64,000 bases of DNA from a virus. Positions 4,696-12,821 of the stretch are shown in pieces. The stretch is from the IMG/VR virus record IMGVR_UViG_3300029422_000001, positions 46,744 through 110,743 of that record, one strand, 5' to 3'. Every line of letters starts with the position of its first letter. Within the stretch, counting starts at the first letter, position 1. Both the position numbers and the translations under genes were made by a program. Below the pieces are notes generated by a model. The model saw nothing but the letters and a program-made list of their open reading frames with translations, made no database searches and was not told where the DNA came from.

Positions 4696-5226
4696 ATGAG
4701 AAGGAGATTTTTTAATGCTGCGGATAATTTCGTGGGAGGATGTTATAATAAGTTATCCAATGAAGATATAAAAAGGCTTGGAGGAAAAAGACCTTATGTA
4801 TGTCAGTTTAATAAAATTCATATACATATAGGACCTGTATTAAAAGATCATGATTCTGATGTTAGTTACATAATGTTTAATAGTGATTGGAATAATGGTG
4901 GTTATGAATCTATGGTTTATAATCATAGCAATAATGGTATTTTTATATTAGGTGAAAACAAAATTGGTAACATAGAAGATCATATACAAGATCTAACATA
5001 TTGGTACGAATATGATCCAAGCATTAATGAAAATCAATGTTATTTTTATTATGAGGCTAATAACAGCGGAAATGCTATCAAGTTGAATGGTGAGTTTAGT
5101 GATACCAGTACTGTTTTCAACATTCCCAGCTTGGAAGTCTCCACTCTTCGTGATGGCAGTTTGAGTTTTCCGGAGATTTATATAGAAGGAATTTGGGATC
5201 CGTCATTGTATAAGTCGGTTTTGTAA
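4696..5226 (+). CDS. Small protein with MRRRFF N-terminus (paralog 1 of 3 MRRRF genes), intact
   Basis: ATG at 4696, 3 nt after the stop of the giant ORF, preceded by AAGGAG. The track ORF 4687..5226 uses an upstream GTG. The N-terminal MRRRFxN...GG motif is shared with the ORFs at 20640 and 21263. Confidence 0.6.
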   Translation: MRRRFFNAADNFVGGCYNKLSNEDIKRLGGKRPYVCQFNKIHIHIGPVLKDHDSDVSYIMFNSDWNNGGYESMVYNHSNNGIFILGENKIGNIEDHIQDLTYWYEYDPSINENQCYFYYEANNSGNAIKLNGEFSDTSTVFNIPSLEVSTLRDGSLSFPEIYIEGIWDPSLYKSVL

Positions 5227-5252
5227 TTAACTTTGCAAAAAAGTTAATTACA

Positions 5253-7511
5253 ATGGGTGTCAAATGTCAGATAGAAAAAAAGGAAAATGAAATAAAACGG
5301 GTTAAGGCTCCTAACGGGGAGCCTTCCGTTCTTTACGAAAGTGCTTTAAAAGTATTAGGAAACAGCGAGCGGGCTCTTCAGGTATGGGCTAAGGCTTACA
5401 CTCCGGGTTTTTTGTCGTATTACGGTCATTGGAATAACCCGGCTCCAGGGGAGATGTTTAACACCGATCCCAATGGCGAACCTCTTTTAGAAGATGTGCT
5501 GTCGTATATGAAGCGTCAGACTTATTTTGCTGATCCTTTAACGGCTCAGGATGTTAAGGATGTAAGGGATTTCCTTTTGTCTACTCATTATTTTTTCAAT
5601 GCGTCTTCATTGTCTAATGCTATTCTCTTCGATTTTTATGTAGATGGCAGTTTGATACTGAATGAGCAGAAATTAAGGAGATCCGGTTTGTATGATGAAA
5701 CAGAAATAAGTCGTATTTTATCCGATCCTTCTGTTTTAAACGAGGTTTCGACTTCCATGAGAAAGTTAATAGATTCTTCTATTAACGAACATGATAGGGA
5801 AAAAGATAATTATTTTATGTCTATTGACTATCAGTATGGTCCTATTGTTTACAAGGAGGGAGTGTTTAACCAATTTGGTAAAAAAGTACCATATAATCCT
5901 TCTGAGCTTTATTATGCTATGCGTAAAACAGTAGCCGGCATAAAAAACTTTTCTGAATTTTCATCTGCTTTTGAATCGTTGAGAAACTCATACCCTGAAC
6001 TGGTTGAGAAATTCGTTTCTGATAAAGAATTTGCCGAATCTATGTTTGATGAGTTCTCATCTACGAATAAGATTCCGGTAATAAACATAGAAGGGGATGA
6101 TGTGGTGGAAGGCAAGAGAAGATCCTTATCTAAGCTACAAGATCTGTCTTATTACAATCCTGGCAAAATAGAGTTCCTAAGAGCTCGTATATCAGCTTAT
6201 TTACATAGGGCTAATGCCGACACCGAATCTGATTTAAGAAGCATGATATGGGATATAGAAGAGGCTTGTACGTGGTTTGGCATAGATATAATAGGGACAT
6301 CGGAAACTTATGATGGCACAGAAGAATCTTTGAATAAGATAGATAATTTGATGCTGGATCTTGATATTTATGTGGCCAGGCATAATGATGTAAATTATGC
6401 TCCAACGCTGGCATCTTTTATAGATGATGTTCTTGGTGATAGCACAGATTATTATTCTGAATTATTGCCGGAGTATATGGATAATTTGAATATCGTTTAT
6501 TCTGAATCCGATATAGACCCAGTAGAAGCGTTTGAGAAACATTCATTGCTTAAGGTAGGAGATAATCTATATCAAAGGATCAGCAAAGATGATATTAACG
6601 AGATGTATCAAATATCAACAGTGTTAGCCAAGCACAACCTAACTCATTTTTCTACTAAAATATATCCTGAATCTTGTTTTAAGAACGGCGTTTTGGATAA
6701 AGAGAAAGTACGGAACGTAGATAATAATACGCTCATGGATTCCATTAAAAAATACGTCAGATCGTTCATGGATTCTCAGAACACAGAGGACATGATAATG
6801 ACCAGGATGGCGTTTGGGCACCCGGAGGTACTTGACGTTCCTTACGTGGATGTGGATCGGGAGTATAGTCGATACATGAACAAAAAACAAGATAGCGAAA
6901 ATCCATTATCCTTATTCGATTTATACCAATCTTACCTTGACAACAAACTCCATAAAACAAAATTATATGATAATGCCTATAAGTATCTTGACTTCAAACC
7001 TGGTCCATCTTTGGGCCTTATTTCTGATGATCCTGATATTTTGAAATCAATAGAATTATCTTTATCTGGAAAAGACAGGTTGATGTTGTTTGATTATAGC
7101 ATGACCAGTACCGACCCTTCTTTATCAGAATTGTTTTATTTGGAGAAGTATGACCCTTCGTATGCCGGGAATGATTTTGAACACTATTTTTACACCAGGC
7201 ACCCGTATTTGTTAAAAGAAAAATCGGGCCCTAATATCGTAGAGCAAGATGGTGTTATAACAGCCGAAGGTATTTATGATAATTTTATAAGAGTAGGTAA
7301 TAAGATATGGTCTAAAGTAAGCGAGAGTAGTTCCGGCTCTATCTACCAAAATCTGACAGGAACCGAATCGGAGGTGAAATACGATTCTACCCAGAAGGCT
7401 AAGACGGTAGAAACTGATTACGCTCCATACCAAAACAGATCTGGCTTGACGCAAGATATGATCGTAAGCAAGTCTGAATTGGATGATCTTAACAAATTAG
7501 AATGCAGGTAA
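5253..7511 (+). CDS. Large hypothetical virion protein (752 aa)
   Basis: Uninterrupted 2259-nt ORF in the same orientation as the flanking giant genes. No recognisable catalytic motif. Confidence 0.75.
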   Translation: MGVKCQIEKKENEIKRVKAPNGEPSVLYESALKVLGNSERALQVWAKAYTPGFLSYYGHWNNPAPGEMFNTDPNGEPLLEDVLSYMKRQTYFADPLTAQDVKDVRDFLLSTHYFFNASSLSNAILFDFYVDGSLILNEQKLRRSGLYDETEISRILSDPSVLNEVSTSMRKLIDSSINEHDREKDNYFMSIDYQYGPIVYKEGVFNQFGKKVPYNPSELYYAMRKTVAGIKNFSEFSSAFESLRNSYPELVEKFVSDKEFAESMFDEFSSTNKIPVINIEGDDVVEGKRRSLSKLQDLSYYNPGKIEFLRARISAYLHRANADTESDLRSMIWDIEEACTWFGIDIIGTSETYDGTEESLNKIDNLMLDLDIYVARHNDVNYAPTLASFIDDVLGDSTDYYSELLPEYMDNLNIVYSESDIDPVEAFEKHSLLKVGDNLYQRISKDDINEMYQISTVLAKHNLTHFSTKIYPESCFKNGVLDKEKVRNVDNNTLMDSIKKYVRSFMDSQNTEDMIMTRMAFGHPEVLDVPYVDVDREYSRYMNKKQDSENPLSLFDLYQSYLDNKLHKTKLYDNAYKYLDFKPGPSLGLISDDPDILKSIELSLSGKDRLMLFDYSMTSTDPSLSELFYLEKYDPSYAGNDFEHYFYTRHPYLLKEKSGPNIVEQDGVITAEGIYDNFIRVGNKIWSKVSESSSGSIYQNLTGTESEVKYDSTQKAKTVETDYAPYQNRSGLTQDMIVSKSELDDLNKLECR

Positions 7512-7553
7512 TTTTTGTACATATATATAGTTTTTCCATAGTTATAATTTGGG

Positions 7554-7579
7554 AAGTGAGGCTTGTGAAAGTCTCACTT
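7554..7579 (+). terminator. Hairpin aagtgag-N12-ctcactt followed by T-rich run. Terminator of the 752-aa gene and/or a subterminal hairpin of the IS left end.
   Basis: Perfect 7-bp inverted repeat read directly, 43 nt after the stop at 7511. Confidence 0.4.
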
Positions 7580-7730
7580 TTCTCATATATGTACGTATAT
7601 CAATAACATACAAGAAAAGTTAGATTTTCATTGTTTATGAATTATTTTTATTAAGTTTGCAATATTAGTTTCAGGAAGGGATTATGGAAATAAGGAAAAG
7701 TAAAATAGCATGCATATTACTTTAATCACA

Positions 7731-7738
7731 TAATTTTG
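7731..7738 (+). promoter_or_regulatory. TAATTTTG, matching the Bacteroidota sigma-A -7 box (TAnnTTTG), upstream of tnpB
   Basis: Exact consensus match about 22 nt upstream of the ATG at 7760. Confidence 0.3.
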
Positions 7739-8968
7739 TATCATAAAGCTGATAAGATAATGATCAAAGGTTACAAATATAGATTAGATCCTACACCGGA
7801 ACAGATTGTCCAAATGGAGAAAACATTTGGCTGTTGTAGGTATGTCTATAATTGGGCTCTTGATCTTAAAATCAAAACTTATCAGGGTGAAAAACGATCT
7901 TTGTCAGCGGTTGATTTATGCAAGCAGCTAACGTTACTCAAAAAAGATGATAACCATCTTTGGCTAAATGAAGTATCTAATGAATGCTTGCAACAATCTA
8001 TCCGCTGTATGGATAGCGCTTTCACCAAATTCTTTAGAGAACATGCTGGTTTCCCAAAATTCAAATCCAAACATAGGGGCAAGAACGTTTTTAAGAACGT
8101 AAACTCTGTTAAGTTTGATTTTGAAAACAACAGAGTTAAGATTCCTATCATTGGTTGGGTAAAGTTCTTTGCCAATCGGTCTTTTGAAGGAAAGATTGGT
8201 ACGATAACAATATCCAAATCATCAACTGGTAAGTTCTATGCAAGTATCTTAATAGATGACGGAATCCCTAATCCTGACAAGTTTGTTATCAATCCCGATA
8301 CGACAGTGGGAATTGATGTAGGGATCAAGGATTTCGCCGTCCTTTCCAACGGCCAGGTTTTTAGTAATCCGAAGTATTTTGAATCTGCGCAGAAAAGATT
8401 AGGATGCTTGCAAAGAAGAATGTCTCGTAAAAAGAAGGGAAGCAACCGATACAAGAAGGCAAAGCATGATGTTGCTGTTTGTCATGAACGGATTCGAAAT
8501 TGTAGACAAGATTTCTTACATAAGGTTAGTAAGAGGATAGTAAGTGAGAACCAAACTATTATCATCGAAGATCTTAATGTAGGAGGTATGTTGAAAAATC
8601 ATTGCCTTGCTAAAGGGATTGCTTCTGCATCATGGAGCGAGTTCTTTAGGATGTTGCAATATAAATCGGATTGGCGCGGTGTTAATTTAATTCGGATTGG
8701 AAGATTCGAGCCGAGTTCTAAGATGTGCGGATGTGGGTATATCCATCGTGATCTGAAGTTATCGGATCGTGTATGGACTTGTCCTGAATGTGGTGCCGTC
8801 AATGATCGTGATTTACTTGCAGCTAATAATATTAAAAAGTTTGGGTTAGAAAAACAGAATCTTCTACCCCAAGAAAATATTAACAAGACACCGGTGGTGA
8901 ACCGGGAAGGGGACGTGGAGTTGCCTACGTTGGTAGGAACGGTGAAGCGTCAAAATGTACTGGTGTAA
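7736..8968 (+). CDS. tnpB: TnpB, IS200/IS605-family RNA-guided endonuclease (OrfB); no TnpA partner
   Basis: N-terminal KGYKYRLDPTPEQ motif. RuvC-I TVGIDVGIKDFAVLS, RuvC-II IIIEDLNVGGM and a CxxC...CxxC zinc finger (CGCGY...CPECG). RuvC-III NDRDLLAANNI. The track start is TTG; a likely ATG lies at 7760 (MIKGYKYRL). Confidence 0.85.
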   Translation: MYHKADKIMIKGYKYRLDPTPEQIVQMEKTFGCCRYVYNWALDLKIKTYQGEKRSLSAVDLCKQLTLLKKDDNHLWLNEVSNECLQQSIRCMDSAFTKFFREHAGFPKFKSKHRGKNVFKNVNSVKFDFENNRVKIPIIGWVKFFANRSFEGKIGTITISKSSTGKFYASILIDDGIPNPDKFVINPDTTVGIDVGIKDFAVLSNGQVFSNPKYFESAQKRLGCLQRRMSRKKKGSNRYKKAKHDVAVCHERIRNCRQDFLHKVSKRIVSENQTIIIEDLNVGGMLKNHCLAKGIASASWSEFFRMLQYKSDWRGVNLIRIGRFEPSSKMCGCGYIHRDLKLSDRVWTCPECGAVNDRDLLAANNIKKFGLEKQNLLPQENINKTPVVNREGDVELPTLVGTVKRQNVLV

Positions 8969-9205
8969 ACTGGCATTTAATCACCTCCTATATTTATAAT
9001 CTGATACAAAATCAAACCGGATTAAGTATCAGAACTATATCCCATGTCTTGAATCACACAAAAGAACAGGATACAGATTCTTTGTGAAAGGCATACATTT
9101 TCCTATATTTGTGTGTTCTTTAGTTTTTAGATTTAAGTTTTTCATGGTATTAGTTTAGATTAGTGTAGATCAGGGCTCGCAGTGATGCGGGCCCTGGTTT
9201 GATTT
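8850..9205 (+). ncRNA. Candidate TnpB omegaRNA (reRNA) and IS right end. Contains a GNRA-capped hairpin 9171-9196 (cagggcucgca-GUGA-ugcgggcccug) plus U-run.
   Basis: Established architecture places the omegaRNA over the 3' end of tnpB and about 100-250 nt downstream. The hairpin and U-tract were read directly. Boundaries are not determinable without homologs. Confidence 0.3.
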
Positions 9206-9374
9206 AAAAAGTATTAAAATATTTGCTATTTAAAATCCTGTTCCTGTCTTTGCTCCAGAAACAATGAACAACGAGATCCCACCTCTGGTTGTTTGATGTT
9301 GAAAGATATTTTTGGCTCATTAGGGTTTGTCATAGTGGGATCTGACATTCTCTTTTGGGCCTATTTTTTTTATC

Positions 9375-9941
9375 ATGGATAAAGTTTCTGTTTTTGAAAG
9401 TTCGGATTTTGGAGAGCTTAGAATTATTGTAGATCCAAAAGGAGATGTTTGGTTTGTGGCGTCAGATGTGGCTAAATCTCTTGGATATATAAATGCTAAA
9501 GATGCGGTAAAAAGACATGTAGATGATGATGATTCTATGCTTTTGCAAGTATCTGATAATCAATGGGGCGTAAAACGATCTATATTGAAAACCAGATATA
9601 TAGATAGTATAAGAATAATTAATGAATCTGGTTTATATTCTCTTATATTATCTTCAAAATTAGAGTCTGCTAAGAGATTTAAGAAATGGGTAACATCTGA
9701 GGTTCTTCCTTCTATTCGTAAAACAGGAGAATATAAAACAAGTTCCGGTGGAAAGGGAATTTTGGTCCCTGACTTTTCTAATCCGGCAGATGCAGCAAGA
9801 GCCTGGGCTGATCAGTATGAAGCTGCTCAGAGAGCTATAGCTGAAAAATCTCAGGCAGAGGCAGAAGCCGGCGTTCTGATGGGACGTACATGGGGTACGG
9901 TGGTGGTATTTACGACCATTACGGTATGCATGAGAAGATGA
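9375..9941 (+). CDS. Bro-N (BRO/antirepressor N-terminal) domain protein
   Basis: FESSDFGELRIIVDPKGDVWFVASDVAKSLGY matches the Bro-N signature (F..IR....G..WF.a.DVa..LG). Confidence 0.7.
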   Translation: MDKVSVFESSDFGELRIIVDPKGDVWFVASDVAKSLGYINAKDAVKRHVDDDDSMLLQVSDNQWGVKRSILKTRYIDSIRIINESGLYSLILSSKLESAKRFKKWVTSEVLPSIRKTGEYKTSSGGKGILVPDFSNPADAARAWADQYEAAQRAIAEKSQAEAEAGVLMGRTWGTVVVFTTITVCMRR

Positions 9942-10989: not shown

Positions 10990-11257
10990 GAAAAAGTATT
11001 TTTTATGGAAAATAAGGAAGATTACGTTGGTTACGAAGATCAAGAACTGTGTAACCGGTATTACAAAGAGGCTGAAGCCATGAGGCAAAAGCAGGACTGG
11101 TCTCGGCTTAGGGCTGTCCCTGCTCCGGCTAAGGGAACGCCATCGCCCGGCTGGGGTCAGCTTGGACGTGGAAATGATGTCCGTGTCAAGTATGTTAGCA
11201 TCAATTCAGGATTAATTCCTGACTTATGTTGAATAAACATTAAAAACGTTTGTAGAT
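10990..11257 (+). ncRNA. Candidate IscB omegaRNA (guide + scaffold), directly upstream of iscB
   Basis: Locally GC-rich (gggctgtccctgctccggctaagggaacgccatcgcccggctggggtcagcttggacgtgg) within an AT-rich genome. Small hairpins present (ggg-ctgt-ccc; ggac-N11-gtcc). IscB omegaRNAs are encoded immediately 5' of iscB. The 75-aa ORF 11005..11232 lies inside it and is probably not real. Confidence 0.4.
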
Positions 11258-12478
11258 ATGGTGTACGTACAAGACATAAATGGTAAACCTATGATGCCAA
11301 CAACGAGGCATGGTAAGGTTAGGAGACTGCTTAAAGATAAAAAGGCAGTCGTTGTGAACCTATGTCCGTTTACCATCCGATTAACGTACGTCACATCTGA
11401 TTACAAACAGGAAATTGTGTTAGGCGTTGATGCTGGAACTAAGCATGTTGGTCTATCAGCTACAACGAAAAGCAAAGAACTTTACAGTAGTGAAGTGATC
11501 CTTAGAAATGATATCGTAGATCTTTTGTTTACCAGAAGGGAGCTACGAAGAGCAAGACGGAACAGGTTAAGATATAGAAAACTTCGTTTTAATAATAGAA
11601 TAAAAAGCAAGCGTCCAGGATGGACAGCACCTTCGGTGAAGTACAAAATAGACGCCCATATTCGTGTTATTGATAATGTTTTTTCTATACTGCCTGTATC
11701 TCGTATTGTTATTGAAGTAGCTCAATTCGATACTCAAAAGATTAAGAATCCTAATATATCGGGTAAAGAATATCAGGAAGGTGATCAACTTGGGTTTTGG
11801 AACACAAGGGAGTATGTTTTAGCAAGGGATGGGCATAAATGTCAGTATTGTAAAGGAAAGTCAAAAGATAAGATCCTTAATGTTCATCATCTTGAATCCC
11901 GAAAAACGGGAGGTGATTCCCCTTCTAATCTTATTACCTTATGTGAAACTTGTCACAAAGAATACCATAAAGGTAATATAGATTTGAAGATCAAACGGGG
12001 ATCGTCGCTCCGCGACGCGGCCGTAATGGGGATCATGAAATGGAAGTTGTATGAAGAACTGAGATCCAGATACGACAGAGTTTTTATGACGTTTGGTTAC
12101 ATTACGAAACATAATCGGATTAAATATGGGATTGAAAAATCCCATACATCCGACGCGTTTGTCATTTCTAAGAATATTAATGCGAAACGAATCGAACGTC
12201 AATATTTAAAACGTTTAATTCGTAGACATAATAGACAAATACATAAAATGAAAATTTTAAAAGGGGGGAAGAAGAAAAACAATCAAGCTCCTTTTGAGGT
12301 TTTCGGTTTTAGGTTGTTTGATAAAGTGTTGTATAACAATAAAATATTCTTTGTTTATGGAAGGAGAAAATCAGGGAGTTTCAATATCAGGGATTTCAAC
12401 GGAGAAAATTCAAAAGATGTTTCACGCAAAAAGTTTAAACTCATTAGAGGGAAGAGGCATCCGATTATATTAAAGTAA
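11258..12478 (+). CDS. iscB: IscB, OMEGA RNA-guided HNH/RuvC nuclease (Cas9 ancestor family), 406 aa
   Basis: N-terminal PLMP domain (GKPMMPTTRHGKVRRLLK). RuvC-I GVDAGTKHVGLSAT and Arg-rich bridge helix RRELRRARRNRLRYRKLRF. HNH DGHKCQYC...NVHHL...NLITLCETCHKEYH and RuvC-III SHTSDAFVIS. Domain order and spacing match characterised IscBs. Confidence 0.85.
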   Translation: MVYVQDINGKPMMPTTRHGKVRRLLKDKKAVVVNLCPFTIRLTYVTSDYKQEIVLGVDAGTKHVGLSATTKSKELYSSEVILRNDIVDLLFTRRELRRARRNRLRYRKLRFNNRIKSKRPGWTAPSVKYKIDAHIRVIDNVFSILPVSRIVIEVAQFDTQKIKNPNISGKEYQEGDQLGFWNTREYVLARDGHKCQYCKGKSKDKILNVHHLESRKTGGDSPSNLITLCETCHKEYHKGNIDLKIKRGSSLRDAAVMGIMKWKLYEELRSRYDRVFMTFGYITKHNRIKYGIEKSHTSDAFVISKNINAKRIERQYLKRLIRRHNRQIHKMKILKGGKKKNNQAPFEVFGFRLFDKVLYNNKIFFVYGRRKSGSFNIRDFNGENSKDVSRKKFKLIRGKRHPIILK

Positions 12479-12515
12479 ATGAACAGATTTAATAAATTTA
12501 ATAGAAAAACGTATC

Positions 12516-12821
12516 ATGTATAATAAAGAAATAGTAATATGCGCGGCCATCTGGGTGCAGGACGACAAGAAACGTCCCTATCAGCCCACCAATATACCAT
12601 CCGGCACCGTGTTCTGTGGATTGAGACACCCCTCTATACTATCTCAACTTGCGGCATACGGTATAGCCCATAAAAACCGCAGTGTTCAAGGATTTTTGAC
12701 AAGCAAGAATCGGTTTCTAACAAGAGAGGAGGCATCTGAACTTGTTAAGAGCAATAATCAGGAAATGGTAGTAGATAGGAGTGCCATTAGAGAACAATTG
12801 TATTCAGAAGATCTATATTAA
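12516..12821 (+). CDS. Hypothetical protein (101 aa)
   Basis: ORF downstream of iscB. Cargo, phage moron or IS-flank gene. Confidence 0.45.
   Translation: MYNKEIVICAAIWVQDDKKRPYQPTNIPSGTVFCGLRHPSILSQLAAYGIAHKNRSVQGFLTSKNRFLTREEASELVKSNNQEMVVDRSAIREQLYSEDLY

Follow-up and report, generated by a model that had tools for sequence, protein, structure and literature searches.

The window analysed here (the whole 64-kb stretch of 64,000 nt from IMG/VR record IMGVR_UViG_3300029422_000001) is part of the genome of an epsilon crAss-like phage related to crAssE-Sib (OR575929.1), its sole close relative within the phage collection. It carries a gene for TnpB, the ancestor of Cas12. Positions 7697-8985 are probably a left-truncated, immobilised copy of a non-autonomous transposon of about 1.33 kb from the IS1595 group, with an intact ISDra2-like TnpB as sole cargo. 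Full-length relatives of this element are bounded by terminal inverted repeats (TIRs) and were found with target-site duplications (TSDs) of 8 bp, whereas the initial annotation had described a solo TnpB of the IS200/IS605 type with hairpins at its ends. Loci compared with the window are cited by number (L001 onwards), and genomes or alleles without the insertion sequence (IS) are called IS-free or empty.

The tnpB gene and the limits of the element

The element and its gene were placed as follows.

7697-8985, plus strand: probable left-truncated, non-autonomous TIR/TSD (IS1595-type) element with tnpB as its only gene, delimited by the limits of homology in other contexts and by the empty sibling
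7731-7738, plus strand: TAATTTTG, candidate Bacteroidota-type -7 box read from the sequence, inside the element and 22 nt before the ATG
7736/7760-8968, plus strand: tnpB open reading frame (ORF), 402 aa from the ATG at 7760, with RuvC residues D186/E270/D351 and zinc finger C323xC325...C341xxC344

The translated ORF matched the Pfam families PF12323 (HTH_OrfB_IS605, 70.7 bits), PF01385 (OrfB_IS605, 97.3 bits) and PF07282 (Cas12f1-like_TNB, 68.2 bits), and the NCBIfam model guided_TnpB (NF040570) with 341.9 bits against a cut-off of 100. The highest-scoring NCBIfam model was IS200_TnpB, at 411.6 bits just below its cut-off of 425. The closest solved natural structure was ISDra2 TnpB (E = 4e-74, residues 3-363). 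In an alignment with 23 relatives, the RuvC triad D186 (GIDVGIKDF), E270 (IIIEDLN) and D351 (NDRD) was kept in the window and in all of them; the ISDra2 residues aligned to it are presumably D191/E278/D361. A predicted C4 zinc finger lies between RuvC-II and RuvC-III and has all four cysteines, as C323-G-C325 and C341-PE-C344. Its first pair is therefore CxC, and not the CxxC previously described. This spacing was conserved throughout the clade in the same alignment, down to about 43% identity, and is thus a trait of the lineage rather than a sign of decay. The predicted protein is a genuine, intact RNA-guided nuclease of the TnpB type. Two further points of the initial annotation held: TnpB is solo with intact catalytic residues, there being no tnpA or other transposase in cis and a single ORF in 1.29 kb, and the -7 box stands where it had been placed, within a stretch (ATAATTTTGTATCAT) conserved in other copies.

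IMG/VR held 80 loci encoding relatives of the window TnpB. In more than 45 copies, from many different contexts, DNA homology to the window was limited to 7697 to about 8986, and the window copy was 92-94% identical in DNA to mobile copies. The empty site that had been expected in a sibling phage was found: crAssE-Sib aligned to window positions 5219-7703 and 8986-9865 at about 95% identity and is IS-free at this position. Window positions from about 7704 to 8985 replace 125 bp of crAssE-Sib, so that about 125 bp of the IS-free allele have been lost from the window copy. Full-length copies reach some 42-45 nt further left, including the left TIR (GGTAATTATATACAATTTTAC); their left-end stretch GGTAATTATATACAATTTTACACCAATCATGTTGTAAAACAT is not present in the window.

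Two hairpins, at 7554-7579 and 9171-9196, had been taken as part of the element, the first as a possible left-end structure. Both are real and strong, with folding energies of -19.2 kcal/mol (z = -6.0) for 7551-7582 and -27.4 kcal/mol (z = -7.4) for 9166-9201. They are shared at about 95% identity with IS-free crAssE-Sib, as is the whole of 8986-9205, and therefore belong to the phage backbone, outside the element; the true left end is missing from the window copy. A 75-aa ORF of crAssE-Sib at the empty site, labelled 'lactose operon repressor', was not treated as a gene, because no Pfam family supported it and L045 and L069 show a broken frame there.

Terminal inverted repeats and transposase family

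In full-length copies the two ends, GGTRATTATATACMATTTTAC on the left and GTAAAMTGGTATATAATCACC on the right, are reverse complements of each other over about 21 nt. Across all loci, viral and bacterial, 54 distinct TIR-bounded insertions were flanked by an 8-bp TSD with at most one mismatch. Units of TnpB size with perfect TSDs included L003 (identical to L100; TTACAATA), L092 (TAAGCTAA), the L029 type (TATAGCTA) and L138 (ATTGTGTC), and a further such unit had GAACAGTA, among others. Pairs of filled and empty alleles within the data set displayed the expected 8-bp overlap. The units of the relatives measure 1.22-1.35 kb, which leaves space for tnpB alone. When viral contigs were scanned for the TIR motif, three kinds of element with the same ends were found in phages: a 51-bp palindromic miniature inverted-repeat transposable element (MITE), MITEs of about 335 bp, and a second TnpB family. 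The latter encodes a protein of 407 aa that Pfam also calls TnpB, has the same TIRs and 8-bp TSDs, and is only 18% identical to the first family (PMC11054128). The positions are listed below.

8965-8985, minus strand: right TIR, IS1595-type, degenerate, with three mismatches to GGTGATTATATACMATTTTAC; the only TIR copy in the window
L092, 1583-2929: unit of the second TnpB family
L202 (crAssE-Sib), 1112-2461: unit of the second TnpB family
crAssE-Sib, 64190-65413: second TnpB family
L083 (the 51-bp palindrome), L129 and L119: loci with same-TIR MITEs in epsilon crAss-like phages

The paper describing crAssE-Sib recorded two TnpB genes in that phage (PMC11054128). Upstream of the muzzle-protein gene, crAssE-Sib (L202, 64190-65593) has the second TnpB family, and at an identical right junction, AAAT/CTCTTTTG (the slash marks the junction here and below), phages of the L004 type have the first family; this site has thus been used by different TnpB elements.

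In bacterial genomes the motif was found in Chryseobacterium, Alistipes/Rikenellaceae, Melainabacteria/Vampirovibrio, metagenome-assembled genomes (MAGs) labelled Alphaproteobacteria, and others. These sites were mostly MITEs of 70-225 bp with perfect TSDs. The 21-nt TIR, GGTRATTATATAYMATTTTAC, was unchanged across several phyla, and the MITE bodies between the TIRs were lineage-specific (L203-L308). TnpB was present at only one of the 109 bacterial sites (L289, a Muribaculaceae MAG). A complete unit of 6008 bp with both TIRs and the TSD AAAAGGAC was recovered at L268. It encodes an IS1595-family transposase of 312 aa starting 84 nt inside the TIR (PF12762, E = 8.6e-39; NF033547, 185 bits, cut-off 75) and carries a type III restriction-modification pair as passenger. 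Homologues of this transposase begin 85-112 nt inside the same TIR in L304, L228, L278 and L277; at L209 and L241 the TIR occurs along with a partial transposase match. An IS1595 transposase was also present in an epsilon crAss-like contig (L189, IMGVR_UViG_3300045988_084586; 11854-12783, minus strand; NF033547, 207 bits); a right TIR stands about 266 nt past its stop codon, no left TIR is recognisable, and the same contig bears a TnpB element (L036/L160).

The TIRs, the 8-bp TSDs and the ends shared with IS1595 transposases together assign the chassis of the TnpB element to the IS1595 family, the link to mobilisation resting on the co-occurrence of ends. In the window copy itself only the right TIR is kept, and the TSD is no longer present. 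These TIRs were also sought in more distant TnpB relatives (40-50% identity, L049-L081) and were not found there.

The type first assigned to the element implies a different history, in which a solo TnpB of the IS200/IS605 group (IS1341-type) is mobilised by a Y1 TnpA in trans and is framed by asymmetric hairpins, the left one at 7554-7579, with an omegaRNA (the guide RNA of nucleases of the OMEGA class, short for obligate mobile element-guided activity) in 8969-9205, and a TTAC-like transposon-adjacent motif (TAM). We regard this as very improbable. The IS200_TnpB score and the closeness to ISDra2 TnpB speak for it, as do a subterminal hairpin 8-9 nt from the right terminus and a fixed tetranucleotide that always stands before the right flank in the empty allele, as in IS605. 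Members of the IS200/IS605 family have neither TIRs nor TSDs (PMC13565253), and the elements examined here have TIRs of about 21 bp, perfect 8-bp TSDs and ends in common with IS1595 DDE transposase units. No Y1 HUH TnpA was seen in cis or in any locus examined, though no systematic search was made. Both hairpins, together with 8986-9205, occur in IS-free genomes. The seven nucleotides that separate AAAT from the left end (N7) are derived from the target: they hold the stop codon of the upstream gene in L004, L035 and L029 have them in their empty alleles, and by eye the N7 of no copy matched the right flanks of other copies. Y1/IS605 models of this 'AAAT plus 7 variable nt' left junction, namely N7 within the element, N7 from the donor right flank, and imprecise right-end cleavage, were rejected because N7 is target-derived. 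A core dinucleotide of a serine recombinase (IS607) was also considered and rejected, as the two junctions share no dinucleotide.

Guide RNA, target motif and history of the copy

The following features were read at the two junctions of the IS1595-type element.

7688-7698, plus strand: left flank of AAAT and AAGGAAA, probable original target with the 8-bp TSD TAAGGAAA, joined directly to IS-internal sequence
8840-8985, plus strand: predicted omegaRNA scaffold, from RNAalifold on 19 distinct copies, overlapping the 3' end of the ORF
8840-8851/8862-8873, 8891-8895/8901-8905, 8912-8916/8947-8951, 8920-8928/8933-8940 and 8956-8964/8969-8977: scaffold helices
8978-8985: scaffold tail, UAAUCACC
8986-9002, plus strand: T of AAAT (8986), then the predicted guide-encoding flank CCTATATTTATAATCT (8987-9002)

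The last 150 nt or so of the element were highly conserved across copies whose proteins share 65-96% identity. In the 19 distinct sequences, 98.1% of the cells in the scaffold helices were paired, against 32-50% with slid partners, and compensatory changes were found in seven pairs, a count reached by 1 of 500 shuffles. The pair 8912-8916/8947-8951 encloses the helix at 8920-8940, and the tnpB stop codon sits in the loop of the final hairpin. The window copy has two broken pairs (8867 and 8977), and its single-sequence fold still gives all the same helices. A structured omegaRNA is thus predicted to overlap the 3' end of the ORF and to abut the right end of the transposon, encoded in the right end together with roughly the final 130 nt of the ORF, with a putative 5' end. 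The omegaRNA had been expected within 200 nt past the stop codon, closed by the hairpin at 9171-9196; that region is backbone DNA, and the covarying scaffold is 8840-8985. The proposed check with covariance models returned no omegaRNA family: no Rfam match to the scaffold passed the gathering or E-value thresholds, and the sole notable weak match was to FopS, at 9135-9208.

The right flank begins at the position equivalent to 8986 in all copies. Since the scaffold ends at 8985, the predicted guide is the flank from 8987 (CCTATATTTATAATCT), at a length taken over from ISDra2. In the IS-free alleles of L045 and L069 the site reads TTTCAAAAT/CCTATATTTATAATCTGATAC, so that AAAT is followed by sequence identical to the predicted guide; in crAssE-Sib an indel lies at target position 13. 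Maintenance by TnpB homing, already raised in the initial annotation, remains plausible in view of the AAAT and exact guide match in these two alleles.

A TTAC-like motif had been expected in the flanks; the conserved motif is AAAT. Among 14 independent left flanks of the first TnpB family it stood at -11 to -8 from the left end in nine, other offsets occurring at most once each. By base, T was found at -8 in all 14 flanks, and A at -9, -10 and -11 in 12, 13 and 11 of them. AAAT was read by eye in five more contexts. The 8-bp TSD starts with its T. In the empty alleles, (A)AA/T precedes the sequence that forms the right flank of the copy, as seen for the window against crAssE-Sib, L045 and L069, and also for L004, L028, L038 and L019. 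MITEs with the same TIRs had AAA/T at only about 4 of 39 sites, so that the motif tracks TnpB and not the transposase. We infer that AAAT (or AAT) is the TAM. TAM- and guide-dependent cleavage by the window TnpB is predicted, with indirect support from the AAAT beside guide-matching sequence in empty alleles.

The right ends of several copies lie away from the insertion point. In L035, L037, L038 and L140 one common left junction is combined with right joins 0, 168, 271 and 842 bp downstream in the empty allele (L166/L092), and the joins of the first three follow (A)AA/T there. Similar right-end offsets were found in L028 (23 bp) and L002 (251 bp). These right-end deletions look like products of intramolecular transposition or of recombination between nearby copies, and each of them re-programs the guide. 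Adjacent deletions of this kind, as in the series above, would explain why TSDs are missing.

In the window the left flank 7688-7698 is directly joined to IS-internal AGTAAAATAG, and empty alleles read AAAT AAGGAAAAAGTAAG, with five A against four in the window. Three steps fit every base: insertion at 7688-7698 with the TSD TAAGGAAA, a right-end deletion of about 118 bp, and loss of about 45 nt at the left end. The right-end deletion would have reached the next AAAT (TTTCAAAAT/CCTATAT in crAssE-Sib). This course is favoured, not proven. A single deletion at microhomology (AAAGTAA) was tried for the left junction; it predicts five A where the window has four, and neither scenario is proven. 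With the left TIR gone and only the right TIR left, with three mismatches, DDE-mediated transposition of the window copy is excluded. The truncated junction was found nowhere else in IMG/VR, and its lone metagenome match was a chance match in a TARA contig.

The window copy might then be an inert relic, neither mobile nor active and awaiting deletion. The loss of the left TIR, the three mismatches in the right TIR and the two broken omegaRNA pairs point that way, the neighbouring IscB is likewise without its omegaRNA, and many 5'-truncated TnpB fragments occur in relatives (L027, L041, L044, L069, L079). Yet the ORF is full-length without a frameshift, every catalytic and zinc-binding residue and the promoter box are kept, and all scaffold helices still form in the single-sequence fold, which makes this outcome improbable.

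The IS1595-type TnpB element would act as follows. Its insertion at an AT-rich site would be the work of an IS1595 transposase that the host or a co-resident phage provided in trans. Transcription from the internal promoter would pass through tnpB and leave at the right end; TnpB would bind the 3' scaffold, and the adjoining flank from 8987 onward would serve as guide. On co-infection the complex would cut IS-free genomes that have AAAT and the same flank, and repair by recombination from the IS-bearing genome would copy tnpB across, which amounts to homing or to interference with a competitor. This follows the accepted homing logic of TnpB in the IS605 model (PMC13565253), carried over here to a phage and a DDE chassis. 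An advantage would arise only where an insertion, or a rearrangement of the right end, has brought the guide beside an AAAT of the IS-free allele, which would explain the fixed AAAT offset in TnpB copies but not in MITEs. The window copy, with one TIR lost, would now spread only by homing or ordinary recombination. Its most likely activity would be TAM- and guide-dependent cleavage of IS-free relatives in co-infection, with copying of tnpB or exclusion of the competitor.

In a variant of this scheme, TnpB and omegaRNA would be a domesticated weapon, kept to cut close IS-free competitors in co-infection (marker exclusion or interference), with self-copying secondary. Its mechanism largely overlaps that of the homing element. 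The ORF and catalytic residues have stayed intact despite the lost left TIR, natural relatives (L045, L069) carry exact TAM and guide targets, the indel at target position 13 in crAssE-Sib might be an escape change, and an advantage given by a nuclease in phage co-infection is documented for homing endonucleases (PMC13565253). On the other side, the 92-94% DNA identity to mobile copies makes the immobilisation look recent, the presence of the truncated copy in no other contig gives no sign of long-term retention, and two omegaRNA pairs are broken. We consider this variant unlikely, though somewhat less so than an inert relic.

Several observations weigh against an immobilised IS1595-type homing element. 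Searches of IMG/VR and metagenomes yielded no full-length ancestor of the allele at this site. No IS1595 transposase was found in the 64-kb window, the rest of the genome and the host being unseen. L268 is the only complete autonomous unit recovered with both TIRs, no right TIR was found within 1.4 kb for the transposase units L304 and L228, and the connection between transposase and TnpB units is drawn from their shared ends. Most TnpB-bearing copies are without a matching TSD. AAAT could alternatively reflect the kind of site that the transposase prefers in phage DNA, and the TAM, the guide length and the omegaRNA 5' end enter the scheme as inferred values. The broken omegaRNA pairs and the right TIR substitutions suggest that the window copy may already be decaying.

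Genomic neighbourhood and relation to known systems

The immediate neighbours of tnpB in the window are a gene for 752 aa and a Bro-N gene. The description 'between two giant virion genes' is only loosely true: tnpB lies inside a variable stretch of about 6.5 kb, and the large ORFs that flank this stretch (1531 and 2140 aa in the window), whose crAssE-Sib counterparts are annotated 'structural protein', stand farther out. The backbone region 9135-9208 (plus strand), kept in crAssE-Sib, gave a sub-threshold match to the Bacteroidetes FopS paralogous small RNAs (RF04319; 32.2 bits, gathering score 56, E = 0.019). Its 5' part, GUUUUUCAUGGUAUUAG, is near-identical to the consensus and the hairpin at 9166-9201 is its terminator stem; the region may encode a phage-borne FopS-like small RNA.

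Comparison of the window with L001, L045, L002 and L310 placed a hot spot of alternative cassettes at window 11213/11214 (about 10489-12057 in L001). It is occupied by IscB in the window, and by a DUF2829 gene and two hypothetical coding sequences in crAssE-Sib, three other coding sequences thus standing where the IscB gene is not present. In L045 a TnpB element lies about 228 nt further on, and in L002 one lies at the equivalent of L001 position 11805. The IscB is genuine (unit 11215-12519, ORF 11258-12478, plus strand; NCBIfam guided_IscB, 348.6 bits, cut-off 175; Pfam RRXRR and HNH) and has 331 relatives in IMG/VR. In 77 related loci the shared unit begins about 240 nt upstream of the ATG, with a conserved structured region. 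In the window, homology begins just 44 nt before the ATG, and the signature AACATTGGCGATGGGTACTAACAG was not found anywhere in the 64 kb; by this comparison the window IscB has lost its omegaRNA.

To our knowledge, IS605 and IS607 elements, both of which excise scarlessly, are the only ones for which the natural role of TnpB has been established. The ISDra2 TnpB-omegaRNA of Deinococcus radiodurans (PDB 8EXA, 8H1J, 8BF8) shares with the window family the domain order HTH/WED-REC, RuvC D/E/D and zinc finger, and an omegaRNA that lies at the ORF 3' end, runs to the right end and takes its guide from the flank. ISDra2 differs in its Y1 TnpA and its lack of TIR and TSD, where the window family has TIRs, an 8-bp TSD and an IS1595-type DDE partner. 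Its TAM is TTGAT, against the putative AAAT; in the window family, unlike ISDra2, the first zinc pair is CxC and the last 21 nt of the scaffold are the transposon TIR.

Altae-Tran et al. 2023 (PMC10691335) reported TnpBs that reside in DDE transposons whose ends are inverted, and also solo TnpBs that are mobilised in trans. A 2026 review lists ISL2, IS630 and IS1031 as the DDE partners of prokaryotic TnpBs, and calls such pairings rare and the combination of OMEGA and DDE in prokaryotes of doubtful benefit (PMC13565253). As in those TnpBs, the ends here are symmetrical and inverted, the tnpB 3' end lies less than 250 bp from the transposon end, and a solo TnpB between ends identical to those of transposase-bearing elements implies mobilisation in trans (PMC10691335). 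Unlike them, the partner is of the IS1595 family, named in neither the main text of PMC10691335 nor PMC13565253; the copies are abundant in crAss-like phages rather than in bacteria or giant viruses; and two TnpB families (18% identity, PMC11054128) use the same ends. No text linking TnpB to IS1595 was found in the literature covered, which did not extend to the supplementary tables of PMC10691335. The IS1595 partner thus appears to be new, while TnpB within DDE transposons was known already.

From the side of the IS1595 family and its MITEs, the GG-starting TIRs, the AT-rich 8-bp TSD, the transposase of about 310 aa with N-terminal zinc ribbon and DDE_Tnp_IS1595 domain, the passenger genes (the type III restriction-modification system of L268) and the MITE derivatives are all familiar. 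The window element differs in having no transposase and one degenerate TIR, and in a passenger that is an RNA-guided nuclease whose guide RNA would include the TIR. Fanzor-bearing DDE transposons of eukaryotes likewise carry an OMEGA nuclease as cargo of a TIR/TSD transposon, with TAM and TSD spatially linked. In described Fanzors the 5' TSD itself forms part of the TAM (PMC13565253), whereas in the present prokaryotic (phage) case AAAT lies upstream of a variable 8-bp TSD and shares no more than one base with it, the first of the TSD.

For the window, the analysis corrects the annotation on several points: where the element begins and ends, where the omegaRNA lies, which guide and TAM are predicted, and that this copy has lost the ability to transpose. 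The window copy itself is a remnant left by truncation, and what deserves interest is the family revealed by comparison. Within one of the most abundant groups of human-gut viruses, that family supplies numerous naturally filled and empty alleles along with TSDs, nested deletions and a candidate TAM. We propose, tentatively and with less than even confidence, that a single IS1595-type chassis in epsilon crAss-like phages has acquired two unrelated families of TnpB, the TIR serving as the 3' end of the omegaRNA scaffold; the DDE transposase would scatter copies to AT-rich sites, and homing would amplify only those copies and right-end deletion derivatives whose flank follows the TAM, AAAT, in IS-free genomes. 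If this is true, a cut-and-paste transposon has been driven through a virus population by an OMEGA nuclease, and the record of it is the constant offset of AAAT together with the nested right-end deletions that stop at AAAT. Whether an OMEGA nuclease benefits a DDE (TIR/TSD) transposon is a question that this family makes directly testable.

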